DNA of 64,000 nt, taken from assembly GCA_964434885.1 (NCBI GenBank), contig CAYSWQ010000003.1:6882-70881 (forward strand), written 5' to 3'. The translations under genes were made by a program, and so were the position numbers. The notes beneath the pieces were generated by a model. It saw only the letters and a list, made by a program, of their open reading frames with translations. It had not been told where the DNA came from and ran no database searches. Of the stretch, positions 2,320 through 43,847 are shown in pieces; positions within the stretch are counted from its first letter, which is position 1; every line of letters starts with the position of its first letter. The DNA is from an uncultured Methanosarcinales archaeon. GTDB taxonomy: Archaea; Nanobdellota; Nanobdellia; Woesearchaeales; GW2011-AR9.

Positions 2320-2321
2320 TT

Positions 2322-2645
2322 TCAGAAGATGTATTGAACAACCAAAGGCGCAATCCAAATTACTATCAAACCAATGATAACTCCCACGGCCATGTTCTTG
2401 GCTCGCTCTTTCTTTGCGTTGTCTCCACCAGCAGTCAAAAATGCTACTCCAGCAAATACCAAGACCAAAACCCCGATAACCGTAGCTGCGTACTTAATGA
2501 AGTTGTAAATCTTCATTATTGGACTTAGTATTGCATCAAACTGCTTTTCATCTTCTTTACTTATTGTTCCGTTAAACTCAATCTTAGCTAACACTAAAGG
2601 GGTAGCTAAGATAAGTAACAGAAGCAAAATTGGCGCCAATTTCAT
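2322..2645 (-). CDS. Small secreted/membrane protein, signal peptide plus two hydrophobic segments (TrbC/VirB2-pilin-like topology)
   Basis: MKLAPILLLLLILATPLVLA signal. GGDNAKKERAK loop between two TM helices. 4-nt overlaps with both neighbours. Confidence 0.45.
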   Translation of the reverse strand: MKLAPILLLLLILATPLVLAKIEFNGTISKEDEKQFDAILSPIMKIYNFIKYAATVIGVLVLVFAGVAFLTAGGDNAKKERAKNMAVGVIIGLIVIWIAPLVVQYIF

Positions 2646-2953
2646 TCTGTTTCACCTCCAATATTTTTATCATTTGAGAATAAATTTCTAAAACCAACAA
2701 CTTCGGGTGGGTCAAGTCTTTCGATTTTAGTTTCAGTTTTTAGTTTGGTTTTTGTTCTTCTGAAACGTCTTGGTTTTAACTTGTAGTAAATCAAGGCAAT
2801 TGACAAGTAAATAAATAATACAAAAACCCCTAACAACATCATGACAACTAAGCCTAACTTGTTCATCCCTAATTCATAAGAAAAAATAAGACTTAAAGGT
2901 AAATAAATACAAAGAAATGCCAAACTAACAATTAATTCTTTTGCTGCGTTCAT
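2642..2953 (-). CDS. Small 2-TM membrane protein with basic cytoplasmic tail (VirB3-like size and topology)
   Basis: Two N-terminal TM helices, then KPRRFRRTKTKLK. Start overlaps the methyltransferase stop (ATGA). Confidence 0.4.
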   Translation of the reverse strand: MNAAKELIVSLAFLCIYLPLSLIFSYELGMNKLGLVVMMLLGVFVLFIYLSIALIYYKLKPRRFRRTKTKLKTETKIERLDPPEVVGFRNLFSNDKNIGGETE

Positions 2954-3879
2954 TTTGATTCAACCTCTATGATTTGTTTAGCAATGGCTTCCGCCATCAA
3001 GGGCGGAACAGCATTGCCAATTTGTTTAACCATGTCATTTTTAGGACCACAGAATTCAAAACTATCAGGAAAACTTTGTAATCGAGCAAGTTCACGAGGT
3101 GTTAAGAACCGGTGATAGAAAGGATGAATATAGATCGGACTAGTGACTATAGTCTTACTTTGTCCGTAAGCATAAAGTCTACACCTACAGAAATTAAAAG
3201 TCTTGGACAATCTTCCGCCTTGAGGCAAACATTTGATTTTAGATAAAATTTCAGGAGAAGTATTAAACCAAACATGCCCATTCAAGCCATTTGGTCTTAA
3301 AGGCAAATCTCCGATTGCTTCAATTACGGTTTTCTTCTTACCAAATGGTTTAGGAAACAAATCTAATTTCTTAGCAATGATGATAACTCGTTCACGATTT
3401 TGAGGAACCCCATAATCTGCAGCATTCAAAATTCGGTAACTTACAGAATAATTTAACTTGATTAGTTCGTGAATAATCTTGTTAATAATTTTCTCTTGAT
3501 CATAATCTTTCATTGATAAAATTCCAGTAACATTTTCAATCACCACAATCTTGGGTCTAATAATACTAACAATCCGAAGAAATTCTTTGTACAACTGGTT
3601 TCTTTTATCTTTGGGATTTCTTTTTCCACAGATAGAAAACCCTTGGCATGGTGGACCACCAACAATAATGTCAACTTTACCTTTCAATTCAGAAAGTTCT
3701 TTACTGCCGATACTGGTTATGTCTGCACAAAAGCACTGTGATCCAGGGTGGTTTTTAAGAAATGTTGTTACTGCTGGCTTCCACCATTCCACACAACCAA
3801 GGATGTTGCAACCTGCTCTTTGAAAACCATGACTAAACCCACCGCAGCCTGCGAACAGGTCGAGAACATTTAATGTCAT
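2950..3879 (-). CDS. DNA (cytosine-5)-methyltransferase
   Basis: Motif I LDLFAGCGG. Motif IV GGPPCQGFS. Motif VI ENV. Motif X QIGNAVPP. 309 aa. Confidence 0.9.
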   Translation of the reverse strand: MTLNVLDLFAGCGGFSHGFQRAGCNILGCVEWWKPAVTTFLKNHPGSQCFCADITSIGSKELSELKGKVDIIVGGPPCQGFSICGKRNPKDKRNQLYKEFLRIVSIIRPKIVVIENVTGILSMKDYDQEKIINKIIHELIKLNYSVSYRILNAADYGVPQNRERVIIIAKKLDLFPKPFGKKKTVIEAIGDLPLRPNGLNGHVWFNTSPEILSKIKCLPQGGRLSKTFNFCRCRLYAYGQSKTIVTSPIYIHPFYHRFLTPRELARLQSFPDSFEFCGPKNDMVKQIGNAVPPLMAEAIAKQIIEVESK

Positions 3880-4446: not shown

Positions 4447-4474
4447 AGTGGACAAGTGGACAAGTGCAGGTAGA
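4447..4474 (+). promoter_or_regulatory. Tandem direct-repeat promoter element GTGGACAA-GTGGACAA-GTGCAGGTAG immediately upstream of a TATA-like box (hef promoter)
   Basis: Sequence aaGTGGACAAGTGGACAAGTGCAGGTAGaatatataaata. Near-identical elements at 12782-12808 and 14578-14606, each abutting a TATA-like box. Confidence 0.5.
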
Positions 4475-4514
4475 ATATATAAATAAGTTAATTCTCGATA
4501 AGATAACTATAACA

Positions 4515-6713
4515 ATGTTAAAAGATTTTACTCCTCGTTTGTATCAGCAAACTATTTTAGGAACGATTGTGAGAAAGAACACCTTAGTAGTTTTACCAAC
4601 TGGAATGGGAAAAACAGCATTAGCTTTTATGTTAGCGGCGCAAAGATTGAGGCAATATCCAAATTCTAAAATATTGTTGTTGGCCCCAACTAAACCTCTT
4701 TGTGAACAGCACAGGAATAGTTTTCGAAAATACTTAGATATTGAAGAAGAAAGAATTGTTTTATTTACTGGACATGTTAAGCCGGAAAAGAGAGCAGAAT
4801 TATGGAAAACTGCCCAAGTGATTATTAGTACTCCCCAAGGTTTGGAAAATGACATCATCAATAGAAAAATTGATTTGAGAGAAGTTAGTTTGTTAACTTT
4901 AGATGAGATCCATCATGCTACAGGAGATTATAGTTATGTGTGGGTTGCTAAACAATATGTTAAAATGGCTAAATTTCCACGGGTTTTGGGTTTAACTGCT
5001 TCTCCTGGTTCAGATATGGAAAAGATTAAAGAAGTTTGTCAAAACACATATATTGAAGAAGTTGAAGTTAGAACCAATAAAGACCCAGATGTTAAACCTT
5101 ATGTTCAAGAAGTGAAACAAGAATGGGTCAAAGTGAATTTACCTCCAGAGTTTGTGGAGATTAAGAAATTTTTAGAGGATTGTTATAAAAGTAAATTGAA
5201 ACAAATTCTAGAGTTGGGTTATTGTAATCATATAGGTTTAAATAAAATTGAGTTGATTAAATTACAAGGTCATTTGCAAGGAAGAATTTCTAGAGGAGAA
5301 AGAGAAATGCCAATTTTAAAATCGGTTTCTTTGTTAGCGGAAGCATTGAAAGTTCAGCACGGTTTAGAATTGTTAGAAACCCAAGGAGTAAAAGCAGTGT
5401 TTTCTTACTTAAATCGGTTACAAAAAGAATCTTATTCTACTAAAGTGAAAGCAGTTCGTAATTTAGCTAGAGATGTTAATTTTAAATCGGCCTTGGTTTT
5501 GGTCAATAGTTTGGTTGAGAAAAAGATTGAACATCCCAAATTAACTAAATTAAAAGAACTAGTTAGAGAAGAAGTGAAGAGAGATGATGCACGAATAATT
5601 ATCTTTACTCAATTTAGGGATTCTGGTTCTGAGATTGTGGAAGAATTAAATAAAATTGAAAATGTGATGGCCCAATTATTTGTGGGACAAAGTAAAAAAA
5701 GTGGTACTGGATTAAGTCAAAAAAAACAAAAAGAAGTTCTGGATGATTTTCGAGAAGGGCAGTTTAATATCTTGGTGGCTACTTCAGTAGGAGAAGAAGG
5801 CCTAGATGTCCCTTCAGTAGATTTAGTAATTTTTCATGAACCAGTTCCTAGTGCGATTAGAACTATTCAAAGAGCAGGAAGAACTGGTCGTTTAGAAAAA
5901 GGAAGAGTTATGGTCTTGATGACTAAAGGAACAAGAGATGAAGGTTATCGTTGGAGTGCTTTTCATAAAGAAAAAAGAATGTATGGTGATTTGGAAAAGA
6001 TCAAAAAAGGTTTTTCTTTGAAAGAAAACCCAATAGTTACTTTAGAAAAATTCATCCCAAAAGAACAAGAAGTTTTGATTTTAGCAGACCATCGAGAAAA
6101 AGGAGGAAGAGTAGTCAAGGAATTAATTGATTTGGGAATTAATTTAGAATTAAAACAATTAGAAAGTGCAGACTATATCTTAAGTGGTCGGGTGGGGGTA
6201 GAGAAAAAAGGAATTTATGATTTTGTATCTTCAATAGTTGATGGCAGATTGTTGGAACAAGTTAAATATTTAAAACAAAATTTTGAAAAATGTTTGGTGG
6301 TCGTGGAAGGAGAAGAAGATATTTATTCTGTCCGGAAAGTTCATGCTAATGCAATACGTGGGATGTTGGCGGCAATTACTATTGGATATGGGGTTCCTGT
6401 TTTATATACTAAAAATGCTAAAGATACAGCCGGCCTTTTATCTGTTATTGCTAAAAGAGAGCAGGACAAAGGCAGAGATTATTCTTTGCATGAACGTAAA
6501 CCAATTTCTTTGAAAGAACAGCAAGAATTTATTGTTTCTGCTTTTCCTGGAATTGGTTTGAACACAGCAAAGATTTTGTTGGAACATTTTGGAAGTGTTG
6601 AAAAATTAGTTGGTTCTTCTTTAGCAGAATTACGAGAAATAGAAGGGATTGGAGAAAAGATTTCTTGTAAAATAAAAGAAGTTTTAGAAGCAAAATATGT
6701 TGTTGATAAATAA
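4515..6713 (+). CDS. hef: Hef: helicase-associated endonuclease for fork-structured DNA (SF2 helicase + XPF/ERCC4 nuclease + tandem HhH)
   Basis: LPTGMGKT (Walker A). DEIHHATG (DExH). HEPVPSAIRTIQRAGRTGR (motif VI). C-terminal ILADHREKGG (ERCC4 nuclease). FPGIGLNTAKILLEHFGS...IEGIGEKI (HhH2). ORF opens at 4464 but the conserved start is probably MLKDFTPRLYQ at 4515. Confidence 0.85.
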   Translation: MLKDFTPRLYQQTILGTIVRKNTLVVLPTGMGKTALAFMLAAQRLRQYPNSKILLLAPTKPLCEQHRNSFRKYLDIEEERIVLFTGHVKPEKRAELWKTAQVIISTPQGLENDIINRKIDLREVSLLTLDEIHHATGDYSYVWVAKQYVKMAKFPRVLGLTASPGSDMEKIKEVCQNTYIEEVEVRTNKDPDVKPYVQEVKQEWVKVNLPPEFVEIKKFLEDCYKSKLKQILELGYCNHIGLNKIELIKLQGHLQGRISRGEREMPILKSVSLLAEALKVQHGLELLETQGVKAVFSYLNRLQKESYSTKVKAVRNLARDVNFKSALVLVNSLVEKKIEHPKLTKLKELVREEVKRDDARIIIFTQFRDSGSEIVEELNKIENVMAQLFVGQSKKSGTGLSQKKQKEVLDDFREGQFNILVATSVGEEGLDVPSVDLVIFHEPVPSAIRTIQRAGRTGRLEKGRVMVLMTKGTRDEGYRWSAFHKEKRMYGDLEKIKKGFSLKENPIVTLEKFIPKEQEVLILADHREKGGRVVKELIDLGINLELKQLESADYILSGRVGVEKKGIYDFVSSIVDGRLLEQVKYLKQNFEKCLVVVEGEEDIYSVRKVHANAIRGMLAAITIGYGVPVLYTKNAKDTAGLLSVIAKREQDKGRDYSLHERKPISLKEQQEFIVSAFPGIGLNTAKILLEHFGSVEKLVGSSLAELREIEGIGEKISCKIKEVLEAKYVVDK

Positions 6714-6736
6714 AATAAGAAAAGAAAAATAATAAG

Positions 6737-7201
6737 TTATAATTTTTTTATCTTTTTCAAAAAAACTTTTTCTAATTTTTCAATCTCTCCTAGGGTGTTG
6801 AAAAACAAAGGGTGTCTTTTGTTTTTAGTTTCTATTCTTCCACCATGTAAAAATTTATCCAATTTGAATTGGTTGATTTCTCTATAAGGGACGTAAATCT
6901 TTTTTGATTTTTTTCCTGCTTTTTGGTGGATTGAAATTCCGTGAGCAGATAACTGGTATTCTTCTTTTACCGGGTAAACTCTTTTGAACAGAAAGTTTAT
7001 TCCTAAAAAAACAACAATGAAAATCAATGTTACTACAATAGTGGGGATCCAACTTTGATCAAATGTAGCAAATGAAAATAGAATCACTAAAACCAAAAGA
7101 ATGGATAGTAAAATTGTTTCTGGTTTGAGTAAAAAAACTTTTTCATGAGGGCATTCCCATCGATGTAAGTGTGCTTTTCTCTTTTTATTTTTTTTTGCCA
7201 T
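6737..7201 (-). CDS. Hypothetical membrane protein (basic N-terminus, 2 TM)
   Basis: MAKKNKKRKAHLHRWECPHEK followed by two hydrophobic helices. Confidence 0.35.
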   Translation of the reverse strand: MAKKNKKRKAHLHRWECPHEKVFLLKPETILLSILLVLVILFSFATFDQSWIPTIVVTLIFIVVFLGINFLFKRVYPVKEEYQLSAHGISIHQKAGKKSKKIYVPYREINQFKLDKFLHGGRIETKNKRHPLFFNTLGEIEKLEKVFLKKIKKL

Positions 7202-7202
7202 T

Positions 7203-7439
7203 TTATTTTTTTAGTTGTTTGTTTTTTTGAATGGCCATTATTGGGGCTTTAGCCGTGCTAACTAAAGCAGCAGCAAACATCATGGTAAAGATAATCATAC
7301 AAGCCAAGCCAAAATCTGCACTTACGGGGTAAACATAGTAATAAGATAACAACAATCCAAGAATTGCAGTAACCATAAAACTACTTTTTAAAGGTACTGC
7401 TTGCCAATGTGATACTTTTTTCTTTGGAATTCTAATCAC
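7203..7439 (-). CDS. Small hypothetical membrane protein
   Basis: 78 aa, two TM helices, adjacent to and co-directional with 6737..7201. Confidence 0.3.
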   Translation of the reverse strand: MIRIPKKKVSHWQAVPLKSSFMVTAILGLLLSYYYVYPVSADFGLACMIIFTMMFAAALVSTAKAPIMAIQKNKQLKK

Positions 7440-7463
7440 CTCTTTTCTTTAAGAATAATATAT

Positions 7464-8585
7464 TTATTTATAATCTTTTTGTTTATAAAGATATTTGTCG
7501 ATTAATTTTTCAGCTTGAAGTCTTTTCTTTTGGTGGTTGGCTAAGAAAGAATTAATTTTTTCTATCAAAATTGCCTTTAATTCACCACTAAGTAATTTCC
7601 CAGATTTGTAATCTTTGTAAACTTGCTCCAATTTTTTGTCATCTTCTTCAAAATACTTTAGCCATTGATATGAAACATCAATTTTGGGATTACCTCCTTT
7701 TTTGCGGTGTTCTTCAATTGTTGATTGGCCACCAGAGAATGCATGTTTGTTTATTTTCTTTTTAACTACTTTAGGAGTATCAGTAGTCAAGATGGCATGT
7801 TCTGCAGCAGTAGTGCTCATTTTTCCTTCTAGACCAGTGATAGGGGGCATGAATTTAGCGTGAAGAATGGCTGGTTTGTGATGACCTAATTTTTCTACTA
7901 CATCTCTACTAATCCTAAAGTGGGGGTCTTGATCAATACCCAAGGGAATAAGACAGGGTTTTTTGGTGTTATTTAAAACATTAGGAAGAAAAACTGGAAC
8001 TGTTTGCATAGAAGTGTAAAAAATACTACCTATATTATTGGAATCTTTAAATCCAAAAGCTGCTTTGATAGTTGAAAAGGTAATTTTTTTAGCTACTTTA
8101 ATTGCTTCTGGATACATTATTCCGGCATGTTTGGTGTTGATAAGAAAATGGGTTCTTTTGGGATCAAAACCTAAAGCGATAACATCTAGCATGTTTTCTT
8201 TAGTCCACTCTTGAATTTCCTGATAAGATTTTTTTTTGAACAAAAACTTTTCATCATCAGTAAATTGAAACCACAAATCTACTTTGAATGTGTCTTGAAG
8301 CCATTTAGTAAATATCCAAGTAGCAAGATGTCCCAAGTGGATTGGGCCAGAAGGGCCACAACCAGTATAAAGAAAAAACTTGTTGCCTTTTTCATATTCA
8401 TCTAAACACCACTTTAGATCTCGATGAGCAAAAAATATTCCCCTACGTAAATAAGGATGTATTTCTTTAGTTATTTTTTTGATTCGATTTAAATCTTTAG
8501 AATTGATCTTTTGAATACCAAATTCTTTAACAATGCGATCATAATCAATTTTTCCAGAGACTTCATAAGGATTTACTTTAGACAT
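7464..8585 (-). CDS. trpS: Tryptophanyl-tRNA synthetase (archaeal/eukaryotic type)
   Basis: HIGH-type motif GPSGPIHLGHLATW. KMSKS-type motif GKMSTT. 373 aa. N-terminus PYEVSGKIDYDRIVKEFG is typical of archaeal TrpRS. Confidence 0.8.
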   Translation of the reverse strand: MSKVNPYEVSGKIDYDRIVKEFGIQKINSKDLNRIKKITKEIHPYLRRGIFFAHRDLKWCLDEYEKGNKFFLYTGCGPSGPIHLGHLATWIFTKWLQDTFKVDLWFQFTDDEKFLFKKKSYQEIQEWTKENMLDVIALGFDPKRTHFLINTKHAGIMYPEAIKVAKKITFSTIKAAFGFKDSNNIGSIFYTSMQTVPVFLPNVLNNTKKPCLIPLGIDQDPHFRISRDVVEKLGHHKPAILHAKFMPPITGLEGKMSTTAAEHAILTTDTPKVVKKKINKHAFSGGQSTIEEHRKKGGNPKIDVSYQWLKYFEEDDKKLEQVYKDYKSGKLLSGELKAILIEKINSFLANHQKKRLQAEKLIDKYLYKQKDYK

Positions 8586-8600
8586 AATGTAATGAATTTT

Positions 8601-9332
8601 TTATTGTTTATATATCTTTTTGCTCAATTTTTGATAACAATAGTCTGTTATCCACCTAAGGTTTTCAATATCTTCTTTGTTATAATCAATAAGTAATTCT
8701 AGCCATTCTTTATCTCCAGAAGCATGGAACGCTTTCCATAAATCAACAGGGTTGCCTTTTAATTTGGGGTGTCGAGAGATAGAAAGTTTTTTTTCCACTT
8801 CTTTTAATCCTCCAATCAAATTTAAATTAATACAAAGGGGTTTTAGATCCAAATGGGGCATAGGGAAAGTTAAATTTAATTGTTTTTTTAATTTTGGTAA
8901 GTCAAAGGCGCTGCCATTAAAAGTAATTACAAGTTTGTAATGGGCGAGTTGTTTTTGAAGAATGTTGGTGGTTAAATTTGCTCCATGAACAAAGGTTTTA
9001 GTTTGGTATTCATCTGCTAAACCAACTAAAATTACTTTTCCTTTCGAATCCACTTCAATATCCACATAACAAGTTTCTTCTTTAAAATAATTGTATAATC
9101 TCCAAGTTTCTTTTTGGGGTAAATTTTTTTTGAAATAAGAAGTGTTTTCATTTAAAAGTTGGATTTGGGCTTCTTTAATCTGGCGATCGTAATGGTATTT
9201 TCTTAATTGGGAAATACCTTTAATTTTTTTTGTTTGGAGAAAATTTTGCCAGTCTTTGATACCTTGTTGCCAAAGACTTTGCTCTGTTTTAGTTGATATT
9301 TTGTCTAAAAAAATAAAAGAGTTTCTAATCAT
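8601..9332 (-). CDS. DEDDy-type 3'-5' exonuclease (RNase H-fold, DnaQ/PolB-exo-like)
   Basis: Exo I YVDIEVD. Exo II ITFNGSAFDLPKL. Exo III YNKEDIENL. Confidence 0.5.
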   Translation of the reverse strand: MIRNSFIFLDKISTKTEQSLWQQGIKDWQNFLQTKKIKGISQLRKYHYDRQIKEAQIQLLNENTSYFKKNLPQKETWRLYNYFKEETCYVDIEVDSKGKVILVGLADEYQTKTFVHGANLTTNILQKQLAHYKLVITFNGSAFDLPKLKKQLNLTFPMPHLDLKPLCINLNLIGGLKEVEKKLSISRHPKLKGNPVDLWKAFHASGDKEWLELLIDYNKEDIENLRWITDYCYQKLSKKIYKQ

Positions 9333-10402
9333 AAATCAATCGAGAGTTTCTTGTTTTTTAAATCTATCTTTTTTATCTTTTTTTCTTTTTGTAGTGTTGT
9401 TTTAATTTCGTTCCAATTTTTGGTTTTCTTTAATTTCTTGGTAATTTCAAGTAGTTTATTCAATGGTTGATATTTTTCATAAATTAATTCAGCTTTTTGA
9501 TTGTTTTTTTCGATTAGGTTTTTTTGTTTTTTAACAGATTTTTCCTGTTCTTCAATAATCTTTTTTTGAGAAATAATCTTTTTTTCGTAAGGTGATTTTT
9601 TTTGATTAAAATCAATTGTTTCTAATGCTTCTGAATATGTTTTAGTTGTTTTGGTTGGTTGTTGATTAGTCAAAGAAAAAGGAGTAATCTGTTCTAGATA
9701 AATATTTCCGGTTGGTTTTTTTAGTTTTTTTATTAATAAATTGATTGTTTCAATAATTTGTTTTATTTCTTTGGGCAATGTTTCTTGAGAAGTTTTGTTT
9801 TTATCAATTTGACTTAAAATGCAAACTTCTTCTGCATAAAGACCACCTAAACCCAATTCAATAGCTAACGTAGCAGCTAGATTTTTCCTAGTGCTTTGTT
9901 TTAATATTTCGGTAAGTTGATTTGATGTGAGGTTCTTCCAGTTGTTTGTTGAAGGAGGAGGAACATATTTTTCTTTTGGACGGATAAAACGGTCTTTGAA
10001 TCTTTGTTGATGGACAGCAGCTAAAATGATATTGTCTTTGTTAGTGAGAATTAGATTTCCTGGAGCAAATAGTTCGATGATTAAATTAAATTTTTCTTCT
10101 TTTTGAAGTTCTAAAATTAGAATCCGCTCTGAATCTTTTTGTTTGATATTTTTAATAAAAGAGTTGTTTAGATATTTTCTTAATTGTAAACAAAAACCAC
10201 TTGGTCTTAATGCTGATTTTTTTTCTGAAGCCAAATTTATTATTTTTCCCGGGATAATACGGACTATTTTTTTCTCTTTTTTGTGTAATTGAAAAAAGAA
10301 TTCTTCTTCTACTTGGTAAATTTGTGAAATTTTTCCATCTACTAAAAATTGTAATTCTTGTGTTAATGCAGTCAATTCCAAGGAAGCAATTGATTTTTTC
10401 AT
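9329..10402 (-). CDS. NFACT-N domain protein (FbpA/Rqc2/NEMF N-terminal homolog), apparently lacking the C-terminal NFACT-R/DUF814 part
   Basis: N-terminus MKKSIASLELTALTQELQFLVDGKISQIYQ...LHKK matches the NFACT-N consensus. Lys/Glu-rich coiled coil at the C-terminus. 357 aa against about 600 for full-length archaeal homologs. Confidence 0.4.
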   Translation of the reverse strand: MKKSIASLELTALTQELQFLVDGKISQIYQVEEEFFFQLHKKEKKIVRIIPGKIINLASEKKSALRPSGFCLQLRKYLNNSFIKNIKQKDSERILILELQKEEKFNLIIELFAPGNLILTNKDNIILAAVHQQRFKDRFIRPKEKYVPPPSTNNWKNLTSNQLTEILKQSTRKNLAATLAIELGLGGLYAEEVCILSQIDKNKTSQETLPKEIKQIIETINLLIKKLKKPTGNIYLEQITPFSLTNQQPTKTTKTYSEALETIDFNQKKSPYEKKIISQKKIIEEQEKSVKKQKNLIEKNNQKAELIYEKYQPLNKLLEITKKLKKTKNWNEIKTTLQKEKKIKKIDLKNKKLSIDL

Positions 10403-10529
10403 GATTTAATGGTTAATCTAGTTTAATTTAAATATGTTTTTGATAAAATTGATTTGGTTTTGGTGTGATTTGATAAATGAGTGACTAATTTAGTAAAATT
10501 TATAAAAATCTTTCGAATTATACGATTAA

Positions 10530-11561
10530 ATGAGAGTTTTAGCTAGCAATAAAGAAGAACCAAAATTAGATTTGATAGATAAAAAAATATTGTATTTGTT
10601 ATCTGTTAATGCCCGGTTTTCTTATTCTACAATTGCTAAACATGTTAAATTGTCTCGAGAAGCAGTTAAACAAAGAATCAACAAATTACTAAAAAAAGAG
10701 GTTTTATTGGGTTTTCAAACTGCCATCAATCACCCAATATTAGATTATAATTCCTATCATGTTTTTTTGCAATTAAATAAACTTAACAAAAAACGAGAAG
10801 AAGAAATTGTGAAAAAATTGGGGGCCGATTCGGATGTTAATGCTTTATTAGAATACGAAGGCAAATACAATTTTGAGGTTTCTTACTTGTTAAAAGATAT
10901 TCGGGAGTTGAATACTAAATTAAAAGAATTATCTGGCCAAAGTATCAAAGACTATAATTTTTTTATTTTGTTAGATACTGTTGCTGCCCAAACTTACTCT
11001 CAATGTTTGCATAAATTAGATTTAGATGTAAAGAACATTCGACATGATGGCTCTTTTTTTGGTGATCTGAATAAAAAAAGAACTGGAAAGATAAATTTGG
11101 ATGAAAATGATAAACAATTATTGAAATTTATTAGTGAAGATGCAAGAATTAGTATGACTGAACTGGCAACTAAATTAAAATTGAGTGTAGATTCTGTAAT
11201 CTATAGAATTAAAAAATTAATTAGTTGTGGAGTAATTGTTGGTTTTCGCCCAATAATTAATTATGCTAATTTGGGATATAGTGTGTATTGTTTGTTTTTT
11301 AAATTTAAAAATTTAAATAAATCAAATGAAGACAAATTTAATTATTTCTTTAAAACTCATCCGAATGTTTTGTGGTCTGCTAATTGCCTAGGTCCATTTA
11401 ATAATATTTCTTATTTGGTTGTGAAAGATAGTTTTGAATATCACAACGTGATTAATGAAATTAGAGAGAATTTTTTTGAAATTATTGATAATTATGAAAG
11501 CTTATTGGCTTTTGCTGAATATAAGTATGGTTTCTTTCCAGGTGGGTTGTTGGAAAATTAA
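10530..11561 (+). CDS. Transcriptional regulator with two tandem Lrp/AsnC-type HTH modules
   Basis: DKKILYLLSVNARFSYSTIAKHVKLSREAVKQRINKLLKKEVLLGF and DKQLLKFISEDARISMTELATKLKLSVDSVIYRIKKLISCGVIVGF. Confidence 0.6.
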   Translation: MRVLASNKEEPKLDLIDKKILYLLSVNARFSYSTIAKHVKLSREAVKQRINKLLKKEVLLGFQTAINHPILDYNSYHVFLQLNKLNKKREEEIVKKLGADSDVNALLEYEGKYNFEVSYLLKDIRELNTKLKELSGQSIKDYNFFILLDTVAAQTYSQCLHKLDLDVKNIRHDGSFFGDLNKKRTGKINLDENDKQLLKFISEDARISMTELATKLKLSVDSVIYRIKKLISCGVIVGFRPIINYANLGYSVYCLFFKFKNLNKSNEDKFNYFFKTHPNVLWSANCLGPFNNISYLVVKDSFEYHNVINEIRENFFEIIDNYESLLAFAEYKYGFFPGGLLEN

Positions 11562-11947
11562 TAGTATTTTTCTTGCCAAATTTCAGGCAATAGTTGTTTT
11601 AGTGTGGTTTCTTTATCTTCGCTAAGAATTACTTTGGTGTTTAGATTTTCTTTATTTATTTCGTAAATCATTTCTCGGCATCTCCCACAAGGAGGCAAAA
11701 TTTTACCTTCGTTAGAAATAGCCACAATCTTATTTATCTTATATTCTTTGTTAGTCACCATATTAGCAATAGCACTATGTTCAGCACAAAAACCAATTCC
11801 ACAACAAGCAACAATACTAACTCCCAAGTAAATATTTCCTTTATCTGTAATTAAAGCACAACTAACATCTCCTATTGAAACATTTTCAGAAACTTTATTT
11901 AAATGAGATATTTCTTTTGCTTTTTTAATTAATTCTGTTGGTTCCAT
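11558..11947 (-). CDS. cdd: Cytidine/deoxycytidylate deaminase family protein
   Basis: Zinc-binding motifs CAEHSAI (H/C-A-E) and PCGRCREM (PCxxC). 129 aa. Confidence 0.75.
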   Translation of the reverse strand: MEPTELIKKAKEISHLNKVSENVSIGDVSCALITDKGNIYLGVSIVACCGIGFCAEHSAIANMVTNKEYKINKIVAISNEGKILPPCGRCREMIYEINKENLNTKVILSEDKETTLKQLLPEIWQEKYY

Positions 11948-11960
11948 TTAAAAATAATTA

Positions 11961-12049
11961 GCGCGGAGGGAGACTCGAACTCCCGATCAGAGGGTTGCAG
12001 CCTCTTGCCGTGGCCGCTTGTGGGCTTTAGCCGCTTGGCCATCCGCGCT
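11961..12049 (-). tRNA. tRNA-Cys (anticodon GCA), 89 nt, with an extra 15-17 nt insertion in the D-arm region (probable non-canonical intron)
   Basis: Reverse complement GCGCGGA...TCCGCGC acceptor stem. T-arm GGGAG TTCGAGT CTCCC. Anticodon arm AGAGG CTGCAAC CCTCT with U33, GCA, A37. The region between acceptor and anticodon stems is 36 nt instead of about 19 and contains a duplicated CAAGCGGC. Confidence 0.6.
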
Positions 12050-12742
12050 TGAGTTTAATGCGTTAATTAATCTTTGTTGCTTTATTGGATGTTCAAACCC
12101 AACATATTTAAAAAAGTTTCTGAAAGAAGATTTTTCTATATCAATATGAAGACACCTACTCCTACTACCATCTTTCCTGGTATTTAATTTAAAATGACGT
12201 ACTGGTGAAGACTTAACTCCAAACTTAGCCAACATAGATCTTAGTTGTTCAAAATATCTAATTCCAGAATCAATTAATAAACTATTCTTTGCCATTCTAA
12301 AACTTATTCTCCAACGTAATTTCTTTCCCCTAGTGATGTGTATGCTTCCTTCGTTATCAAATAATCCCCTCAAGTAAGAGCTTTGTATTTCTGGTGTGCC
12401 ATTGAAAACCCACTCGGGAACTACAAACGAATTATTGGTTTTATTTCCTACTGGAGTTCCTATCTCTTTCAAAAAAACACAGATTGGTTTTGAAATAATA
12501 AATAATTTATATCGTCTTGTGGAGTTTGGGCTTTTTTTGGAAGTGCTATCATCTACATAAATTCTTCCTTCTATTTCAAATAAATCGAAAAAACGTTGTT
12601 TGACTGCTTTTATTTCTTCTAAATTCTTTGAATAAAAAGAAGCAAGATATCTCCATTTATCAATTTGTAAATGACCATCTCCCGTTAAATCAGCTACAGT
12701 GCGAGCTAGTTTTGGATTTTTCTTTAAGTGTTGCATTTTCAA
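11987..12742 (-). CDS. Double-motif LAGLIDADG homing-endonuclease-like protein, free-standing
   Basis: LARTVADLTGDGHLQ and LRGLFDNEGSIHI motifs about 100 aa apart, Lys/Arg-rich. The last roughly 20 codons overlap the 5' part of tRNA-Cys. Confidence 0.6.
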   Translation of the reverse strand: MKMQHLKKNPKLARTVADLTGDGHLQIDKWRYLASFYSKNLEEIKAVKQRFFDLFEIEGRIYVDDSTSKKSPNSTRRYKLFIISKPICVFLKEIGTPVGNKTNNSFVVPEWVFNGTPEIQSSYLRGLFDNEGSIHITRGKKLRWRISFRMAKNSLLIDSGIRYFEQLRSMLAKFGVKSSPVRHFKLNTRKDGSRSRCLHIDIEKSSFRNFFKYVGFEHPIKQQRLINALNSSADGQAAKAHKRPRQEAATL

Positions 12743-12781
12743 TTACTACTTTAAATGCAACAAGTAAGAAAATATAAAAAT

Positions 12782-12808
12782 CCTACCTGGACTTGTCCAC
12801 TTGTCCAG
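12782..12808 (-). promoter_or_regulatory. Second copy of the tandem GTGGACAA promoter element (minus strand: CTGGACAAGTGGACAAGTCCAGGTAGG), abutting a TATA-like box upstream of the LAGLIDADG gene
   Basis: Followed on the minus strand by atttttatatttt, then the ATG at 12742 about 28 bp further on. Confidence 0.5.
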
Positions 12809-12839
12809 TTGATTTCAAAAAAATTATTTAGAAATAATA

Positions 12840-12979
12840 TGGACCTGAAGGGATTCGAACCCTCGATCTACAGCTTAGAAGGCTCTAGCGGGACAATTTG
12901 TCCTGTCGCCATATTTGACCCACGTTTGGGGCAAGCCCGGGAACTATGTTCCCCGTGTCCAGGCTAGGCTACAGGTCCA
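12840..12979 (-). tRNA. Intron-containing tRNA (about 140 nt; at least two insertions including a hairpin in the D-loop; isotype unresolved)
   Basis: Reverse complement GGACCTG...CAGGTCC-A acceptor. T-arm GAGGG TTCGAAT CCCTT. D-stem GCCT/GGGC interrupted by GGGGAACATAGTTCCC hairpin. About 45 extra nt between the D and T arms. Confidence 0.55.
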
Positions 12980-13046
12980 TATAGAATTGTTAGAAATAAA
13001 GGTTATTTATAAAATTTAGTATTAAAAAAGAAATAAAAGAAAAAAA

Positions 13047-14168
13047 TTAATTAACATCTTTTAAACCCGCAGTTTCTACAAAAAAGCAAACTTCCCCGTC
13101 TGGTAAGGCAGGTGCATCTATTAACTTTGCCACTCTCGATCCTTTCTTACCTTTTCTCAAGTAAATTCGGAAAGTAGAGGCATGAGCCACAATATGTCCT
13201 CCAATAGAAGCAGTAGGATCTCCAAAGAACTGATCTGGTTTGGCCATTACTTGATTGGTAACATAAACACAGATGTTGTGAGTGTTAGCAACTTTAGCCA
13301 AGGCATGCATATGGCGATTTAATTTCTGCTGTCTTTCTGCTAACGTTCCTCGACCAATATATTCTGCTCGAAAATGAGAAGTTAAAGAATCGACTACTAC
13401 CAACATTACTTTTTTGTTTTGTTCGTTGATTAAGCTTTCTACTTTTTCAGCTAGCAACATTTGGTGGTCAGAGTTATATGCCCTAGCAACCATTATTCTG
13501 CTTAATGCATCTTCTGGATTCAAACCTGCTCCTTCTGCTAATTGGGTGATTCTTTCTGGTCGAAATGTGTTTTCTGTATCAATGTAAACCACAGTGGCAT
13601 CAGGATGAACATTTAATGTATTAACTGCAAGGATATGGCCTACTTGGGTTTTTCCAGAACCGAATTCACCAAAACATTCGGTGATTGCTCCAGTTTCAAA
13701 TCCACCTCCCATTAATGTGTTGAAGTTCTCTGAACCGGTGCTTATTTTAGATACTTGTTCTCTTTTCTTCAAAATATCCATTCCTGATTCAAAACCCATT
13801 TTCATGCTATCTCTTGCAGCATTAATCATCTTTCTAGCGACTGATTCAGAAACACCAGTGGTTTCAATCAATTCTCCAATTGTGGCAACTGCCATGGACA
13901 TCATATCTCGATAACCCGCATTGGCTAGTTTTTCGGCAGTGGCGGCCCCCACTCCTGGAAGGTCCTGGAGAGTGGGTTCTTTTTCAATCTCTTTATTGGG
14001 AGTTAGTTCTAAATTTTTTGTTGTTTTTTCTTCAGTGGTTGGTTTAGGTGTTGTTTCTGGTGTTGATTCTGATACTTGTTCTAATGTTGTTTCTGTGTTT
14101 TCAGTATTTGGTTCTGAATTTTGTTCTAAAATTTCAGTGGGTTCTTCAATTATTTTTTCTTTGGTCAT
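13047..14168 (-). CDS. radA: DNA repair and recombination protein RadA
   Basis: N-terminal HhH LQDLPGVGAATAEKLANAGY. Walker A GEFGSGKTQ. RecA-fold core. C-terminal SRVAKLIDAPALPDGE. Unusual roughly 60-aa T/E/P-rich N-terminal extension. Confidence 0.9.
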   Translation of the reverse strand: MTKEKIIEEPTEILEQNSEPNTENTETTLEQVSESTPETTPKPTTEEKTTKNLELTPNKEIEKEPTLQDLPGVGAATAEKLANAGYRDMMSMAVATIGELIETTGVSESVARKMINAARDSMKMGFESGMDILKKREQVSKISTGSENFNTLMGGGFETGAITECFGEFGSGKTQVGHILAVNTLNVHPDATVVYIDTENTFRPERITQLAEGAGLNPEDALSRIMVARAYNSDHQMLLAEKVESLINEQNKKVMLVVVDSLTSHFRAEYIGRGTLAERQQKLNRHMHALAKVANTHNICVYVTNQVMAKPDQFFGDPTASIGGHIVAHASTFRIYLRKGKKGSRVAKLIDAPALPDGEVCFFVETAGLKDVN

Positions 14169-14179
14169 CTTGCTTTCCT

Positions 14180-14467
14180 CTATTGTGCTTTGAATAGTTC
14201 TTGTTCTTTAAGAACTAAATATTCATAAGCTTTCTGTAACACAATACTTGCTTTTGGCAAGTCATTTATTCTTAAAGAATTGGTGTTTTGCCATTCGCCT
14301 TTTTCATCTTTGTAACAACGATCCAGACTTATGGTTCGATATTCGACTGCTTCTCCGGTTTTGTTTTGGCCTTTGTTAGACCAAATAGTGGCCGAAACTG
14401 ATCCGGCACGATACTTTTTTTCAGGTGTGTTACCTGTACTTTGGTTTTGGGTATTCATTGATACCAC
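14180..14467 (-). CDS. PC4/Sub1-like (YdbC-family) ssDNA-binding protein
   Basis: YRAGSVSATIWSNKGQNKTGEAVEYRTISLDRCYKDEKGEWQNTNSLRINDLPKASIVLQKAYEYL fits the PC4 C-terminal-domain pattern (conserved W, GE..EYR.ISL.R.Y.D..G.W). Stop is 12 bp from the radA start. Confidence 0.45.
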   Translation of the reverse strand: MVSMNTQNQSTGNTPEKKYRAGSVSATIWSNKGQNKTGEAVEYRTISLDRCYKDEKGEWQNTNSLRINDLPKASIVLQKAYEYLVLKEQELFKAQ

Positions 14468-14577
14468 CTCGTTTTGCTATTCGCTTTTTATTTCAAACCA
14501 CAACCAATTTTGATTGCAGCGAGGGGTGGCCAATTGCTTGGCTACGTTTAGTTGGAGTGAGAGGTAGTTTAAATAGT

Positions 14578-14606
14578 CTACCTGGAGTTGTCCACTTGTC
14601 CACTAC
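14578..14606 (-). promoter_or_regulatory. Third copy of the tandem GTGGACAA promoter element (minus: GTAGTGGACAAGTGGACAACTCCAGGTAG) abutting TATA-like tatttaaa, about 110 bp upstream of the PC4-like/radA operon
   Basis: Same element and orientation relative to the downstream gene as at 4447 and 12782. Confidence 0.5.
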
Positions 14607-14716
14607 TCTTTTTTTTGGGCCAGTTTTGGGCTTAATTTTCGTTTTGGAGACTGTTTTGTTGTTTTTTTTAAGTAGACAAAATTATTTTTTAAAGTGTCTT
14701 CTATTAAATTTTTCTG

Positions 14717-15178
14717 TTAAATAATAGTTATTGTTTTGATTATCAAAAAAGTAAAGATCAAGGTTTGAATTAATTTTTCTCCCCAACCATTAGTTTTGAA
14801 AAATCCTTTAATTTTGAAAGAAAATGGGTACATGATTGGAAGGCCTTGTTTAGTTAAAGAATCGGCAAGTAAGTGAGATGTAATTCCAATAAAAATTCCC
14901 CAAGCATAATATTCATTGAATACATATTTGGTTGTTAATGTAGTGAGGATTAAAAAAAATAAAGAGTGGAAGAATCCTCGGTGTTTAGAGAAAAAAGAAG
15001 TTATTTGGCCAATTAAACCTGTCCATTGAGTTGCTTTGCTGTGTTTTTCATCAATATCTGGTAGCAAGCTCCCTAACAAAACAAAAATTAGGAGCAGAAT
15101 TTCATTTCCTCCATTTAGGAATGGTTCAAAAAGGAAAAAGGAAAAAAGTCCTATTAAGATGTGGGTTGGAAATAGCAT
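14717..15178 (-). CDS. YdjM/DUF457-like membrane-bound metal-dependent hydrolase
   Basis: MLFPTHILIG...HRGFFHSLFF...TSHLLADSLT motifs. 4 TM helices. Confidence 0.4.
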   Translation of the reverse strand: MLFPTHILIGLFSFFLFEPFLNGGNEILLLIFVLLGSLLPDIDEKHSKATQWTGLIGQITSFFSKHRGFFHSLFFLILTTLTTKYVFNEYYAWGIFIGITSHLLADSLTKQGLPIMYPFSFKIKGFFKTNGWGEKLIQTLIFTFLIIKTITII

Positions 15179-16161
15179 TAATTTACTTTGTTGAGTTCAG
15201 TTGTGGGGTTGGCTTTTTCTACAATTTGGGCAACAAATTCCAACCGATCAAACATCTCATTGCGATTAACCCTACCAATAACTTTGAATTGTTCTCCCAA
15301 AAGTTCGGTTTTTAGATCTTCAAATAATCCCATGTTTTCTTTAAATTTGACCATTTCTTCGTCAGATTTTCCTAACAAATTATTAGTCTGGTTCTTCCAG
15401 AAAACTCCCCGGATAGTTCCAGTTCCATCATCTAAAACTAAATTAAGAACATAGGAGCTAGCAGCTTCTACTTTACTATGTTCATTACAATAGAAACCAT
15501 CTTCTCGTTCATCAACTCTTTTACTACATTCTGGACAAACATTAAAATATCGGGGATCAAAGACTTGAACCACAGTACCCATTAATTCCACTCCCAAATC
15601 TCCTTCTTTTAAGATATCAATTTTTTTTCTTTCACGGAGTGTGGATTTTTGTTTGACAGTACCAATTGTTTCTCCTTCTGGATTGATTGAGACACTGCTA
15701 CGGTCATTTAAATGAAGTTCTACTTGGTTGAAGTTATTTTCTTTAGCATAACCAGAAGAGATTAGAACTACATCTTCTTCTTTTAATTCATTCATAATAT
15801 CTGCTTGGTCATTCCAACAAGCAATTCGAATAGTTCCTGAATCATCACCAATCACAAAAGCACCTATTTTCCCTTGACGTCCATTCTTATCGAATTCTCG
15901 GATTGGAAATTTTTGGGTTACTTTTCCTAGAACTTCAACTTGTTTCATACCCGCATAAATTTTATTGATTTTAAAACGCCCTTCTTCTTCGACAATTTTA
16001 ATTCCCATTTCATTGGCAATTATGTGGGCAGCGCCTTCTTCAGAAATCAAACCAGAGAGTTCATTAATTTTGGCTTTAATTTTTTCATCTAAATCTTCGG
16101 CAGATAAATTAGATCCTTGTTGAATTTTTTCTTTTAATTCTGCGATAGGGACTTTAAACAT
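15178..16161 (-). CDS. rpa: Replication protein A-like ssDNA-binding protein (OB folds + C4 zinc ribbon)
   Basis: OB-fold pattern KIYAGMKQVEVLGKVTQ...AFVIGDDSGTIRIACWN. Zinc ribbon CPECSKRVDEREDGFYCNEH. Second OB GTIRGVFWKNQ. Confidence 0.65.
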   Translation of the reverse strand: MFKVPIAELKEKIQQGSNLSAEDLDEKIKAKINELSGLISEEGAAHIIANEMGIKIVEEEGRFKINKIYAGMKQVEVLGKVTQKFPIREFDKNGRQGKIGAFVIGDDSGTIRIACWNDQADIMNELKEEDVVLISSGYAKENNFNQVELHLNDRSSVSINPEGETIGTVKQKSTLRERKKIDILKEGDLGVELMGTVVQVFDPRYFNVCPECSKRVDEREDGFYCNEHSKVEAASSYVLNLVLDDGTGTIRGVFWKNQTNNLLGKSDEEMVKFKENMGLFEDLKTELLGEQFKVIGRVNRNEMFDRLEFVAQIVEKANPTTELNKVN

Positions 16162-41143: not shown

Positions 41144-41225
41144 AGTGGCTTTGCACTTTAAACTTTCTTGATGGAAAGTAATAAAGTGGCTTTGCACTTT
41201 AAACTTTCTTGATGGAAAGTAATAA
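41144..41225. repeat. Perfect 41-bp tandem duplication (2 copies), each unit carrying TTTAAA plus the inverted repeat ACTTTC-ttgatg-GAAAGT
   Basis: agtggctttgcactttaaactttcttgatggaaagtaataa appears twice back-to-back, immediately upstream of rnz. Confidence 0.8.
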
Positions 41226-41253
41226 AAAGTAATTATCTTTTCTAATATTTATA

Positions 41254-42147
41254 ATGGAAATTACTATTTTGGGTACTGCTTGTATGCAACCTACAAAAGA
41301 TAGAAACCACGTAGGCATTTTACTTAGTTATGGGAAGGAAAAAATATTATTTGATTGTGGAGAAAATATTCAAAGACAATTAAGAATTGCTGGTTTAAAG
41401 CCTGCCAAAATAACCAAACTCTTTATTTCTCATTGGCATGGAGATCATGTTTTGGGAGTTCCTGGTTTAATGAGTAGCATGGGTGCAGATAATGCTGCAG
41501 GAAAACTACTCATTTATGGTCCTAAAGGAACTAAAAAAAGAATTGAATATCTAAGAAAAGCATTTGAAAGCAAACATATGGTGGATTATGAAGTTCATGA
41601 AATTGTACCTGTTGGTAAAAAAGTTAAAAAAATTGAATTTGATAATTATTTCTTTGAAGTTCGTAATTTAGAACATGGTGTTGGTTGTTTAGGATATAGA
41701 ATGGTTGAAAAAGATAAATTAAAAATTAAACCTAAATTTGTTAAAAAAATTCCAGGTATTTTGTTGGGAAACTTACAAAAAGGAAAAAATATTGAATTTG
41801 AAGGAAAGAAAATCAAATCTCCTGAAGCAACTTATTTGGTTCCTGGTAAAAAGATAGTTATTTTAATGGATACTCGGCCATGTACTACTTTTGTTAAATT
41901 AGCCCAAGAAGCTGATTTATTAATTACAGAAGCGACTTATTTAGATGAACATAAAGATAAAGCAGAAGAATATTTACATTTAACTGCAAAAGAAGCAGGT
42001 ATGTTGGCAAACCAAGCCAATGTTAAGAAATTAATATTATTACACTTTAGTTCTCGGTATAAAGATATTTCTTTGATTAGAGAAGAAGCAAAAGAAGTTT
42101 TTGAAGATGTTGTTTGTGCTGAAGATTTTATGAAATTTAAAATATGA
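41254..42147 (+). CDS. rnz: Ribonuclease Z (tRNA 3'-processing endonuclease, metallo-beta-lactamase fold)
   Basis: HxHxDH motif SHWHGDHVLGVPGL. 297 aa. Confidence 0.8.
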   Translation: MEITILGTACMQPTKDRNHVGILLSYGKEKILFDCGENIQRQLRIAGLKPAKITKLFISHWHGDHVLGVPGLMSSMGADNAAGKLLIYGPKGTKKRIEYLRKAFESKHMVDYEVHEIVPVGKKVKKIEFDNYFFEVRNLEHGVGCLGYRMVEKDKLKIKPKFVKKIPGILLGNLQKGKNIEFEGKKIKSPEATYLVPGKKIVILMDTRPCTTFVKLAQEADLLITEATYLDEHKDKAEEYLHLTAKEAGMLANQANVKKLILLHFSSRYKDISLIREEAKEVFEDVVCAEDFMKFKI

Positions 42148-42539
42148 ATACTAAAGCCAAAGGAACAAAAGGAGAAAGAGATTTGATTAAATTATTCAAT
42201 GAAGCTGGATGGAGTGCAATTAGAAGTGCTGGTTCTGGTTCTCAAAGTTATCCTTCTCCTGATTTATTAGTAGGAAATGCTGTTCGTAGATTAGCAATTG
42301 AATGTAAAGTAACTAAAAATAAGAAAAAATATTTTTATTCTTCAGAAATTGAACAATTAAAAGAATTTTCCCAGAATTTTGGAGCAGAAAGTTGGATAGG
42401 AGTTAAATTTCCCCAAGAAAAGTGGTATTTTTTGATTTTAGAAGATTTAGAATGTACTGGTACTTGTTTAGCTATTTCTTTAGAACAAGCAAAATTAAAA
42501 GGTTTATTGATAGAAGAATTAATTAATAAAGATATTTAA
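42144..42539 (+). CDS. hjc: Holliday junction resolvase Hjc
   Basis: KGTKGERDLIKLFNEAGWSAIRSAGSGS...DLLVGNAVRRLAIECKVTK matches the archaeal Hjc catalytic core (E..D..E-x-K). ATGA overlap with rnz. Confidence 0.8.
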   Translation: MNTKAKGTKGERDLIKLFNEAGWSAIRSAGSGSQSYPSPDLLVGNAVRRLAIECKVTKNKKKYFYSSEIEQLKEFSQNFGAESWIGVKFPQEKWYFLILEDLECTGTCLAISLEQAKLKGLLIEELINKDI

Positions 42540-43266: not shown

Positions 43267-43268
43267 AA

Positions 43269-43807: not shown

Positions 43808-43847
<40 letters not shown>

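Follow-up and report, generated by a model that had tools for sequence, protein, structure and literature searches.

A tandem 8-nt promoter element at hef, the radA operon and a LAGLIDADG gene of a marine woesearchaeal genome: a predicted transcription-factor site

What kind of signal is a short repeated sequence that recurs, almost unchanged, directly ahead of the TATA boxes of a hef gene, of a LAGLIDADG gene and of the operon that contains the recombinase gene radA? The question is raised by 64,000 nucleotides of DNA (GenBank assembly GCA_964434885.1, contig CAYSWQ010000003.1, positions 6,882 to 70,881 of the forward strand), a stretch that we call the window and whose own numbering is used throughout. 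This DNA, with about 31% G+C, comes from an uncultivated marine archaeon; the same sequence is found in several marine metagenomes, in contigs of up to 127 kb, and the closest named homologues belong to Candidatus Woesearchaeota or Nanoarchaeota, among the DPANN archaea. A preliminary description of the locus had reported three near-identical copies of a 27-nt element and had proposed that they mark a repair regulon controlled by a transcription factor. The three copies are present where they had been placed, to within 1-3 nt. As argued below, comparison with related sequences makes it very probable that the element is a functional transcription-factor site, predicted to define a set of co-regulated genes.

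Read in the direction of the gene, all the sites have the same architecture: two abutting 8-nt boxes are followed by a 12-nt G-rich spacer and then by a TATA octamer. At site 1, upstream of hef on the forward strand, the boxes are two copies of GTGGACAA (4448-4455 and 4456-4463), the spacer is GTGCAGGTAGAA (4464-4475), which is G-rich at the position of the TFB-recognition element (BRE), and the TATA octamer is TATATAAA (4476-4483); transcription is predicted to start at about 4506, and hef begins with the ATG at 4515. Site 2 lies on the reverse strand upstream of the LAGLIDADG gene, with the boxes CTGGACAA (12808-12801) and GTGGACAA (12800-12793), the spacer GTCCAGGTAGGA (12792-12781), the TATA octamer TTTTTATA (12780-12773) and the ATG at 12736. 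Site 3, also on the reverse strand, serves an operon composed of a gene for a small protein and radA. Here GTGGACAA occurs twice (14603-14596 and 14595-14588), followed by the spacer CTCCAGGTAGAC (14587-14576) and the TATA octamer TATTTAAA (14575-14568), with a predicted transcription start at about 14545 and the ATG of the small protein at 14458. The core formed by the two boxes is a direct tandem repeat and not a palindrome. It ends 12 nt before the TATA octamer and about 5 nt before the BRE position. The consensus of the boxes in the window is [G/C]TGGACAA, which becomes [G/C]T[G/A]GACAA when the relatives described below are included.

The specificity of the element is striking. When the 16-nt core is sought with up to 3 mismatches, the three sites are the only matches in the window, where 0.30 are expected, and none of 100 shuffled sequences reaches three. 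The 3' half, GGACAASTSCAGGTAG, retrieves the identical three matches against an expectation of 0.47, and each of the five exact copies of GTGGACAA in the window falls within one of the elements. A position weight matrix (PWM) of the tandem boxes was used to scan the 64-kb window together with about 115 kb of sequence from relatives (L016, L018, L019, L140, L143, L144, L147, L148 and L145). The scores are bimodal. Sites 1 and 3 score 29.8 bits and site 2 scores 28.3, and the rest of the window yields nothing above 13 bits; over all true sites, those of the relatives included, the range is 23-30 bits, and the best other score is no higher than 18. Thus the earlier statement that this is a promoter-proximal element of recombination-related genes, carried by no other promoter in the 64 kb, is borne out, and a search for copies at unrelated promoters or inside coding regions, which might have revealed a repeat family, found none in the entire scanned sequence. 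Outside the element the three copies in the window have nothing in common, their flanking sequences being unrelated.

The position of the element with respect to the basal promoter is equally constrained. Inspection of about 34 upstream regions in the window showed that an ordinary promoter consists of an A-rich BRE followed by a TATA box such as TTTATAAA, some 30-40 nt before the ATG; the element is present at three of these regions. It is therefore not a general BRE/TATA element, which should be found at most promoters. At site 2 the distance of about 36 nt from TATA to ATG is typical for the window, and both this site and site 1 fit the ordinary geometry. What distinguishes the element promoters is the sequence at the BRE position, occupied in the window by the atypically G-rich CAGGTAG. 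Judged by composition only, the 7-mers at this position contain a mean of 2.9 G, compared with 0.7 G at 17 other promoters of the window (Mann-Whitney p = 6e-5). The 12-nt segment between the core and TATA, which overlaps the BRE position, is semi-conserved (C-R-G-R-Y-A-R).

Which genes are served? The product of hef (4515-6713, forward strand) matches the Pfam families DEAD, Helicase_C, ERCC4 and HHH and the NCBIfam Hef equivalog (883 bits against a cutoff of 610), as appropriate for a helicase-ERCC4-HhH fork-repair nuclease, and the radA product (13047-14168, reverse strand) matches Pfam Rad51 and the NCBIfam RadA equivalog (453 bits against a cutoff of 259). From these sequence matches, the identities of Hef and RadA are secure. 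The gene downstream of site 2 (11987-12736, reverse strand) encodes a free-standing protein of 249 aa with a Pfam LAGLIDADG_3 domain, which resembles homing-endonuclease domains in that it matches, in NCBIfam, the intein portions of RtcB, RFC and GyrA. These three assignments of the preliminary description are confirmed by Pfam and NCBIfam, but its fourth, a PC4-like protein encoded by the first gene of the radA operon (14180-14458, reverse strand), is not. This conserved 92-aa protein has no match in Pfam, NCBIfam or the PDB sequences; its AlphaFold model (predicted local distance difference test score 85.6) comprises four strands and a helix, for which Foldseek gave nothing significant, and its 505 homologues are all from Woesearchaeota or Nanoarchaeota. 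Among the replication and transcription genes of the window, orc1/cdc6, those for PolD DP1 and DP2, MCM, TBP and TFE-alpha are without the element; as negative controls, they speak for its specificity.

If the element were functional, it should be maintained at orthologous promoters. Apart from L014, which came from a scan of metagenome contigs, the relatives were identified from proteins homologous to Hef or to the 92-aa protein, and in four related marine populations the element was found at six orthologous hef or radA-operon promoters. In the Tara population L014/L016, in which Hef is 82% identical, it reads GTGGACAAGTGGACAA-GTGCAGGTAGAC with TATA octamer TTTATATA, its core is identical to that of site 1, and the first gene downstream is that for a tyrosine recombinase (xerA), followed by hef. 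The Tara population L140-L142 (small protein 84% identical; GTGGACAACTGGACAA-GTCCAGGTAGAC, TATA TATTTAAA) and L144 (77%; GTGGACAAGTGGACAA-CCACGGGCAAGA, TATA TATATAAA) both carry it ahead of the small-protein gene and radA. Two promoters of a single genome, GCA_974946905.1, are represented by L018, where the element precedes hef (Hef 75% identical; GTAGACAACTAGACAA-CAACGGACAAAG, TATA TATATAAA), and by L143, where it precedes a LAGLIDADG_2 gene, the small-protein gene and radA (small protein 70% identical; CTGGACAACTAGACAG-GCTCAGATAAGA, TATA TATATAAA). In L147 (69%), a degenerate version, ACTGGTCACTGGACAT-GCGCGGACAGAG with TATA TTTATATA, again precedes the small-protein gene and radA. The earlier expectation of conservation at orthologous promoters thus holds for hef and the radA operon of the closest relatives, but not for hef in relatives whose Hef is 70-72% identical, to which we will return.

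These alignments reveal which part of the element is conserved. At all of the nine distinct promoters, three in the window and one each in L016, L140, L144, L143, L018 and L147, the core stands in the orientation of the gene exactly 12 nt ahead of a canonical TATA box, although the sequence of the spacer diverges. In a blastn comparison of the window with L016, the element and TATA are the only part that aligns, and in the comparison with L140 similarity begins exactly at the element. The preliminary description had taken the whole 27-mer to be conserved. In fact, the tandem 8-mer and its 12-nt register to TATA are conserved within the clade, but the CAGGTAG segment is lineage-specific, being replaced in relatives by CGGGCAAG, CGGACAAAG or CAGATAAG, and in L018 and L147 the 12-nt segment takes the form of a third GGACA box. 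A TAGACA variant is present in both promoters of GCA_974946905.1, and in the window genome and the Tara population CAGGTAG recurs at each of the five promoters. Such covariation of variants within genomes is expected if all the sites track one trans-acting factor.

When GGACAAGTGGACAANNNCAGGT was sought in 185,579 species genomes, a set of representatives that does not include the motif-bearing genomes of this lineage, it gave only three chance matches, all bacterial. In metagenome contigs this pattern added one true relative, L014, and two chance matches, and scans of viral contigs with a 14-mer core gave noise only, with no match that had TATA at the right distance.

Additional copies of a single box, not recorded in the preliminary description, accompany the core. 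In the window, GTAGACAA is located at 14672-14679 on the forward strand, inverted relative to the radA operon and 76 nt ahead of the core of site 3. Inverted half-sites at -75 or -76 are shared by this promoter, the xerA-hef promoter of L016 and the radA promoter of L140, and direct half-sites are found at -98 in L016 and L140, whereas L144 has one at -86 and L143 one at -65. Across the nine promoters this makes seven such half-sites between -65 and -98, one or two at each of the promoters just named, where 0.35 are expected (Poisson 1e-7). The xerA-hef promoter of L016 and the radA promoter of L140 are not orthologous, and they have the same layout, with a direct half-site at -98 and an inverted one at -75.

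From these observations we favor a model in which a multimeric, sequence-specific factor would occupy both boxes and, cooperatively, the distal half-sites. Adjoining a non-consensus, G-rich BRE, the factor would help to recruit TFB and TBP and would thereby activate transcription. Activation is favored because the core lies just upstream of a non-consensus BRE, the usual position for an archaeal activator, and because the layout is nearly identical to that of the upstream activating sequence (UAS) of the haloarchaeal activator GvpE, discussed below. In this model hef, the radA operon and the LAGLIDADG genes would be switched on together when recombination is needed, at stalled or broken forks or after DNA damage, although it is the functions of the genes that suggest a damage, replication-stress or cell-cycle signal. 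The best reading of the sequence comparisons is that the regulon is small and specific to a clade of marine Woesearchaeota, and that its members are hef, joined by xerA in one relative, the operon of the small-protein gene and radA, and LAGLIDADG genes. For the full statement, that the element is the site of a recombination regulon and acts positively by TFB recruitment, we consider the chances to be about even.

Several observations weigh against this model. The recombination and repair genes hjc (42144-42539) and two RPA-like genes (15178-16161 and 52765-53433) of the window lack the element. Since it is found at neither orc1/cdc6, PolD and MCM nor at hjc and the RPA-like genes, the element is no replication or cell-cycle signature, and not all recombination genes are covered. 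The proposal of a repair regulon under a transcription factor is accordingly favored by the specificity and conservation of the element, but not by its absence from hjc and the RPA-like genes. The element is also absent at hef in L019 (Hef 70% identical) and L148 (72%), so that the system is young or fast-evolving. Only about 180 kb of sequence from element-bearing genomes was inspected, and relatives were found with two of the target genes as baits. The third box overlaps the BRE position and fits a repressor equally well, and TATA boxes that are near the consensus argue against a generally weak promoter. Finally, the gene set, and xerA in particular, is as compatible with a signal from the cell cycle or from growth as with a damage signal.

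Repression through the same site, and of the same regulon, is a strong rival: the 12-nt segment is semi-conserved, and L018 and L147 both have a third GGACA box there that overlaps the BRE. According to this scheme, which has the logic of LexA, a repressor bound to the tandem boxes and the adjoining third box would cover the BRE and block access of TFB and TBP, until a signal of damage or replication stress inactivates it and thereby releases the genes. Archaeal repressors commonly occlude the BRE or TATA (PMC5512572), the near-consensus TATA boxes may confer a high basal strength, and the regulon includes a recombinase gene, as do bacterial SOS regulons. However, the best-conserved part of the element, the tandem 8-mers, lies entirely upstream of the BRE, which is typical of activators (PMC5512572). 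The sequence at the BRE position departs from the A-rich norm of the genome, as it does at activator-dependent promoters, and the site is a direct repeat with no palindrome. On balance, we regard repression as a real possibility, although we would not expect it.

A second alternative accepts the element as real and changes the signal. Instead of damage, the cell cycle or the growth phase would set expression, providing for recombination and dimer resolution after replication. In favor of this idea, the element of one relative has as its first gene xerA, which serves to resolve chromosome dimers. Tandem 8-bp boxes resemble the operators of ribbon-helix-helix (RHH) proteins, such as the metboxes of MetJ, a likeness that does not amount to a test. 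Small RHH repressors time the expression of cell-cycle genes in the Sulfolobales (PMC13199686). On the other hand, the replication genes of the window, orc1/cdc6, PolD and MCM, do not have the element and no cell-division genes were seen under it. We therefore consider this alternative rather unlikely, a little more so than repression.

In a third alternative, the element would be an extended core-promoter signature read by an alternative TFB or TBP paralogue, and would thus denote a class of promoter rather than an operator. Alternative TFBs serve stress responses in other archaea. The rigid 12-nt spacing, invariant at nine of nine promoters, and the unusual sequence at the BRE position might be explained in this way. 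However, TFB reads 6-7 nt (PMC5512572), and the boxes are situated farther out, 13-28 nt upstream of TATA; half-sites 65-98 nt upstream, some of them inverted, are typical of the binding of a regulator. Moreover, a single TBP gene was seen in the window. This explanation appears improbable.

The last alternative, that the copies have no regulatory role and represent a dispersed repeat, a mobile-element end or mere chance resemblance, could draw on the location of site 2 between two tRNA genes beside a homing-endonuclease gene, on the mobile module that borders site 1 and on the tyrosine recombinase gene that follows the element in L016, but it has been effectively refuted by the comparative data and is hardly credible, since none of the 100 shuffled sequences gives three matches, coding and unrelated regions of the scanned sequence contain no copies, the flanks have neither similarity nor terminal inverted repeats, the element is kept at orthologous promoters in the orientation of the gene and constantly 12 nt from TATA, and the L016 recombinase passes the XerA model (barely) and belongs to a locus whose remainder is syntenic with the window. 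A miniature inverted-repeat transposable element would likewise be present in many copies in unrelated contexts, and copies were found only at the promoters named above.

Two further resemblances were considered and set aside. A Xer/dif site is about 28 bp long and has two inverted arms around a central spacer, whereas the element is a direct repeat found at three promoters per genome, and the window has no xerA. The similarity to a sigma-70 promoter (TGGACA-17-TATATT) was dismissed, the organism being archaeal, with RadA, Hef, MCM, Orc1, PolD, TBP and TFE. As for the xerA assignment in the Tara population L014/L016, the recombinase scores 220.4 bits against the equivalog cutoff of 220, and the locus is syntenic with the window downstream of hef.

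Is the factor encoded nearby? Between hef and radA, at 10530-11561 on the forward strand, lies a gene for a 343-aa protein that consists of two fused Lrp/AsnC-type units with two helix-turn-helix domains. Its candidacy is conceivable but unsupported, as the gene is not syntenic in the relatives and has no link to the element. A gene of the TrmB family just outside the window could not be linked to the element either.

The radA operon appears to have a second regulatory feature, likewise absent from the preliminary description. Its 5' leader (14459-14545, reverse strand) is unusually long, about 87 nt, and is predicted to be structured. From its 5' end it contains a first hairpin, an invariant CCCUCG, a second hairpin and the invariant stretch UGAAAUAAAAAGCGAAUAGCAA. 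The CCCUCG is predicted to pair with the Shine-Dalgarno sequence CGAGG, and the A-rich UGAAAUAAAAAGCGAA(N)AGCAA is invariant and unpaired. The same fold is predicted separately for four orthologues, those of the window, L140 (4797-4884), L144 (4234-4318) and L147 (9790-9874), and both hairpins maintain their pairing by multiple compensatory changes, a covariation in four sequences, too few for a firm test. The leader of the window folds better than shuffled sequences (z = -3.15). No known RNA family was found at the element or the leader with Rfam, using its gathering and E-value thresholds, and a split or half tRNA was ruled out since there is no tRNA match. The invariant motif was found only at the radA operon, and nowhere else in the window and relative sequences scanned or in the viral contigs. 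These predictions suggest that the leader may be an undescribed cis-regulatory RNA. The radA operon would then be controlled at a further level, with translation limited by sequestration of the Shine-Dalgarno sequence.

LAGLIDADG genes of different families recur beside the radA operon in three related genomes. The LAGLIDADG_3 gene of the window is served by a separate copy of the element, that of site 2. In L143 an unrelated LAGLIDADG_2 gene (6786-7571) is located between the element and the small-protein gene, where it replaces the 5' part of the leader, and in L147 a LAGLIDADG_3 gene (11308-12306) directly follows radA without an element of its own. The LAGLIDADG_3 gene of the window and the LAGLIDADG_2 gene of GCA_974946905.1 would have come under this type of promoter independently. 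Some Woesearchaeota genes for Hef (P0025 and P0118) and eRF1 (L147, 18595-20165) carry inteins with LAGLIDADG_3 domains, which are a likely source of the free-standing endonuclease of the window.

It is tempting to combine these observations in an SOS-like recombination regulon with two layers, peculiar to a clade of genome-reduced DPANN archaea. A dedicated factor, reading the GTGGACAA boxes in their fixed register to TATA, would respond to replication stress or damage by switching on hef, xerA and the radA operon, a leader RNA would gate the translation of the radA operon, and LAGLIDADG genes would hitch-hike on the system. We offer this composite only tentatively, as it goes well beyond the identification of the site itself. 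If it is correct, homing endonucleases are made exactly when the host recombination machinery on which they depend is induced.

The surroundings of the LAGLIDADG gene of the window also deserve comment. A gene for tRNA-Leu(CAA) (11959-12049, reverse strand) overlaps the last ~60 nt of the LAGLIDADG open reading frame, and directly upstream of site 2 is a tRNA-like gene (12841-12978, reverse strand; GGACCTG...TTCGAATCCCTTCAGGTCCA), so that the endonuclease gene is wedged between two tRNA genes. The tRNA-like gene is not called by ARAGORN or Rfam. Deletion of about 61-64 nt from the D-arm region yields a call of tRNA-Arg(TCT), and the sequence thus probably represents a tRNA that is interrupted, at a non-canonical position, by a large intron.

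Other neighbors of the element promoters were recorded as well. The hef promoter is bordered by a module that resembles a type IV secretion system (244-3879, reverse strand, and continuing beyond the start of the window, L145/L146 10001-18149). Possibly conjugative, and not a usual find in a DPANN archaeon, it encodes a serine resolvase and a C5 cytosine methylase as well as a TrbC/VirB2-type pilin and a VirB4/TraC-like ATPase. Directly upstream of the radA-operon promoter are an RPA-like gene and a gene of the YdjM family (14717-16161, reverse strand), an arrangement present in all the relatives but L147; neither gene has the element. In E. coli, ydjM is regulated by LexA.

Elsewhere in the window there are two more candidate sites. 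An AT-rich intergenic region of 1.1 kb (43266-44363) upstream of orc1/cdc6, with the PolD and MCM genes nearby, contains inverted copies of TCCATAGGAAAT(A)AAGG at 43568-43584, 44173-44189 and 44254-44287, which resemble mini origin recognition boxes (mini-ORBs). This region is probably a replication origin. Just upstream of the operon for Hjc and a metallo-beta-lactamase that resembles tRNase Z, the 32-nt sequence CACTTTAAACTTTCTTGATGGAAAGTAATAAA occurs twice as a direct repeat (41155-41253, forward strand). Each copy contains the palindrome CTTTC..GAAAG, and the repeat may be another regulatory site.

We found no description of the element's motif in the literature. Among archaeal regulons for recombination or repair genes, none has a defined cis-element apart from that of the Sulfolobales, in which Orc1-2 acts with TFB3, and from a few observations in haloarchaea; about gene regulation in DPANN archaea almost nothing is known. 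A 16-bp core with fixed geometry offers a handle for capturing the factor, for defining the regulon in metagenome-assembled genomes and for reading metatranscriptomes. The element suggests that homing endonucleases exploit the host's control of recombination. Element and leader RNA in combination suggest that even a very small genome gates its recombinase levels tightly.

How does the element compare with known systems? The only well-established archaeal counterpart, in the sense of a short promoter motif that defines a damage-handling regulon, is the element ANTTTC of the Sulfolobales, which is bound by Orc1-2 (PMC6061795). Its targets are ups, ced and tfb3 and not radA or hef, and its factor is a paralogue of Orc1/Cdc6. 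Direct reading of the three elements in the window shows that ANTTTC is absent from all of them on either strand. Furthermore, the sole Orc1/Cdc6 gene seen in the window adjoins the putative origin, and nothing ties Orc1/Cdc6 to the element. Another comparison is with Sta1, which activates the promoter of a radA paralogue in Sulfolobus (PMC2175319). This is a winged-helix activator at the promoter of an archaeal recombinase-family gene, but it concerns a single crenarchaeal gene and a different binding sequence. The tandem Lrp/AsnC-like protein encoded at 10530-11561 has a sub-threshold match to the Sta1 family (33.7 bits against a cutoff of 80), with no evidence of a link.

The SOS box of bacteria, the site of LexA, provides a functional parallel, in that one cis-element is common to a recombinase gene and other repair genes and selfish elements hitch-hike on the system. 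The same combination of recombinase and repair genes is found here, in the radA operon, hef and, in a relative, xerA, while hjc and the RPA-like genes stand apart. The SOS box differs in being a palindrome, whereas the present element is a direct repeat set in an archaeal TATA/BRE context. To our knowledge, LexA is not to be expected in archaea.

In layout the closest resemblance is to the GvpE UAS, which consists of two 8-nt portions next to the BRE and is intolerant of any change in distance (PMC2241852). In both cases a pair of conserved 8-nt stretches is placed directly upstream of BRE/TATA in a fixed orientation at few promoters, and the distance that is critical for the GvpE UAS has its counterpart here in the invariant 12 nt to TATA at nine of nine promoters. 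The sequences differ (TGAAACGG-type for the GvpE UAS, GTGGACAA here), the portions are 4 nt apart there and abut here, and auxiliary distal half-sites are found here only. The GvpE UAS belongs to the gas vesicle genes of Halobacteria and has a known activator, whereas the present element belongs to recombination genes of a DPANN archaeon and its factor is predicted.

More generally, the EarA boxes, the ara-box and the TFB-RF1 site are activator sites directly upstream of a weak BRE (PMC5512572; PMC5937170). They share with our element short repeated boxes immediately upstream of the BRE, a proposed mechanism of TFB recruitment, and a BRE that departs from the norm of the genome, here G-rich instead of the usual A-rich, as judged from composition only. 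The motifs, factors and target genes are unrelated, and for the present element activation is a prediction. Four features of the class of archaeal promoter-proximal UASs, to which Ptr2 sites also belong, are nonetheless found in the woesearchaeal element: a position at BRE/TATA with fixed orientation, a constrained distance, two or more repeated boxes of 6-8 nt and a BRE that deviates in composition. By this comparison the element would be new in its motif, its lineage and its gene set, and of a kind already known, the promoter-proximal regulator site of archaea.

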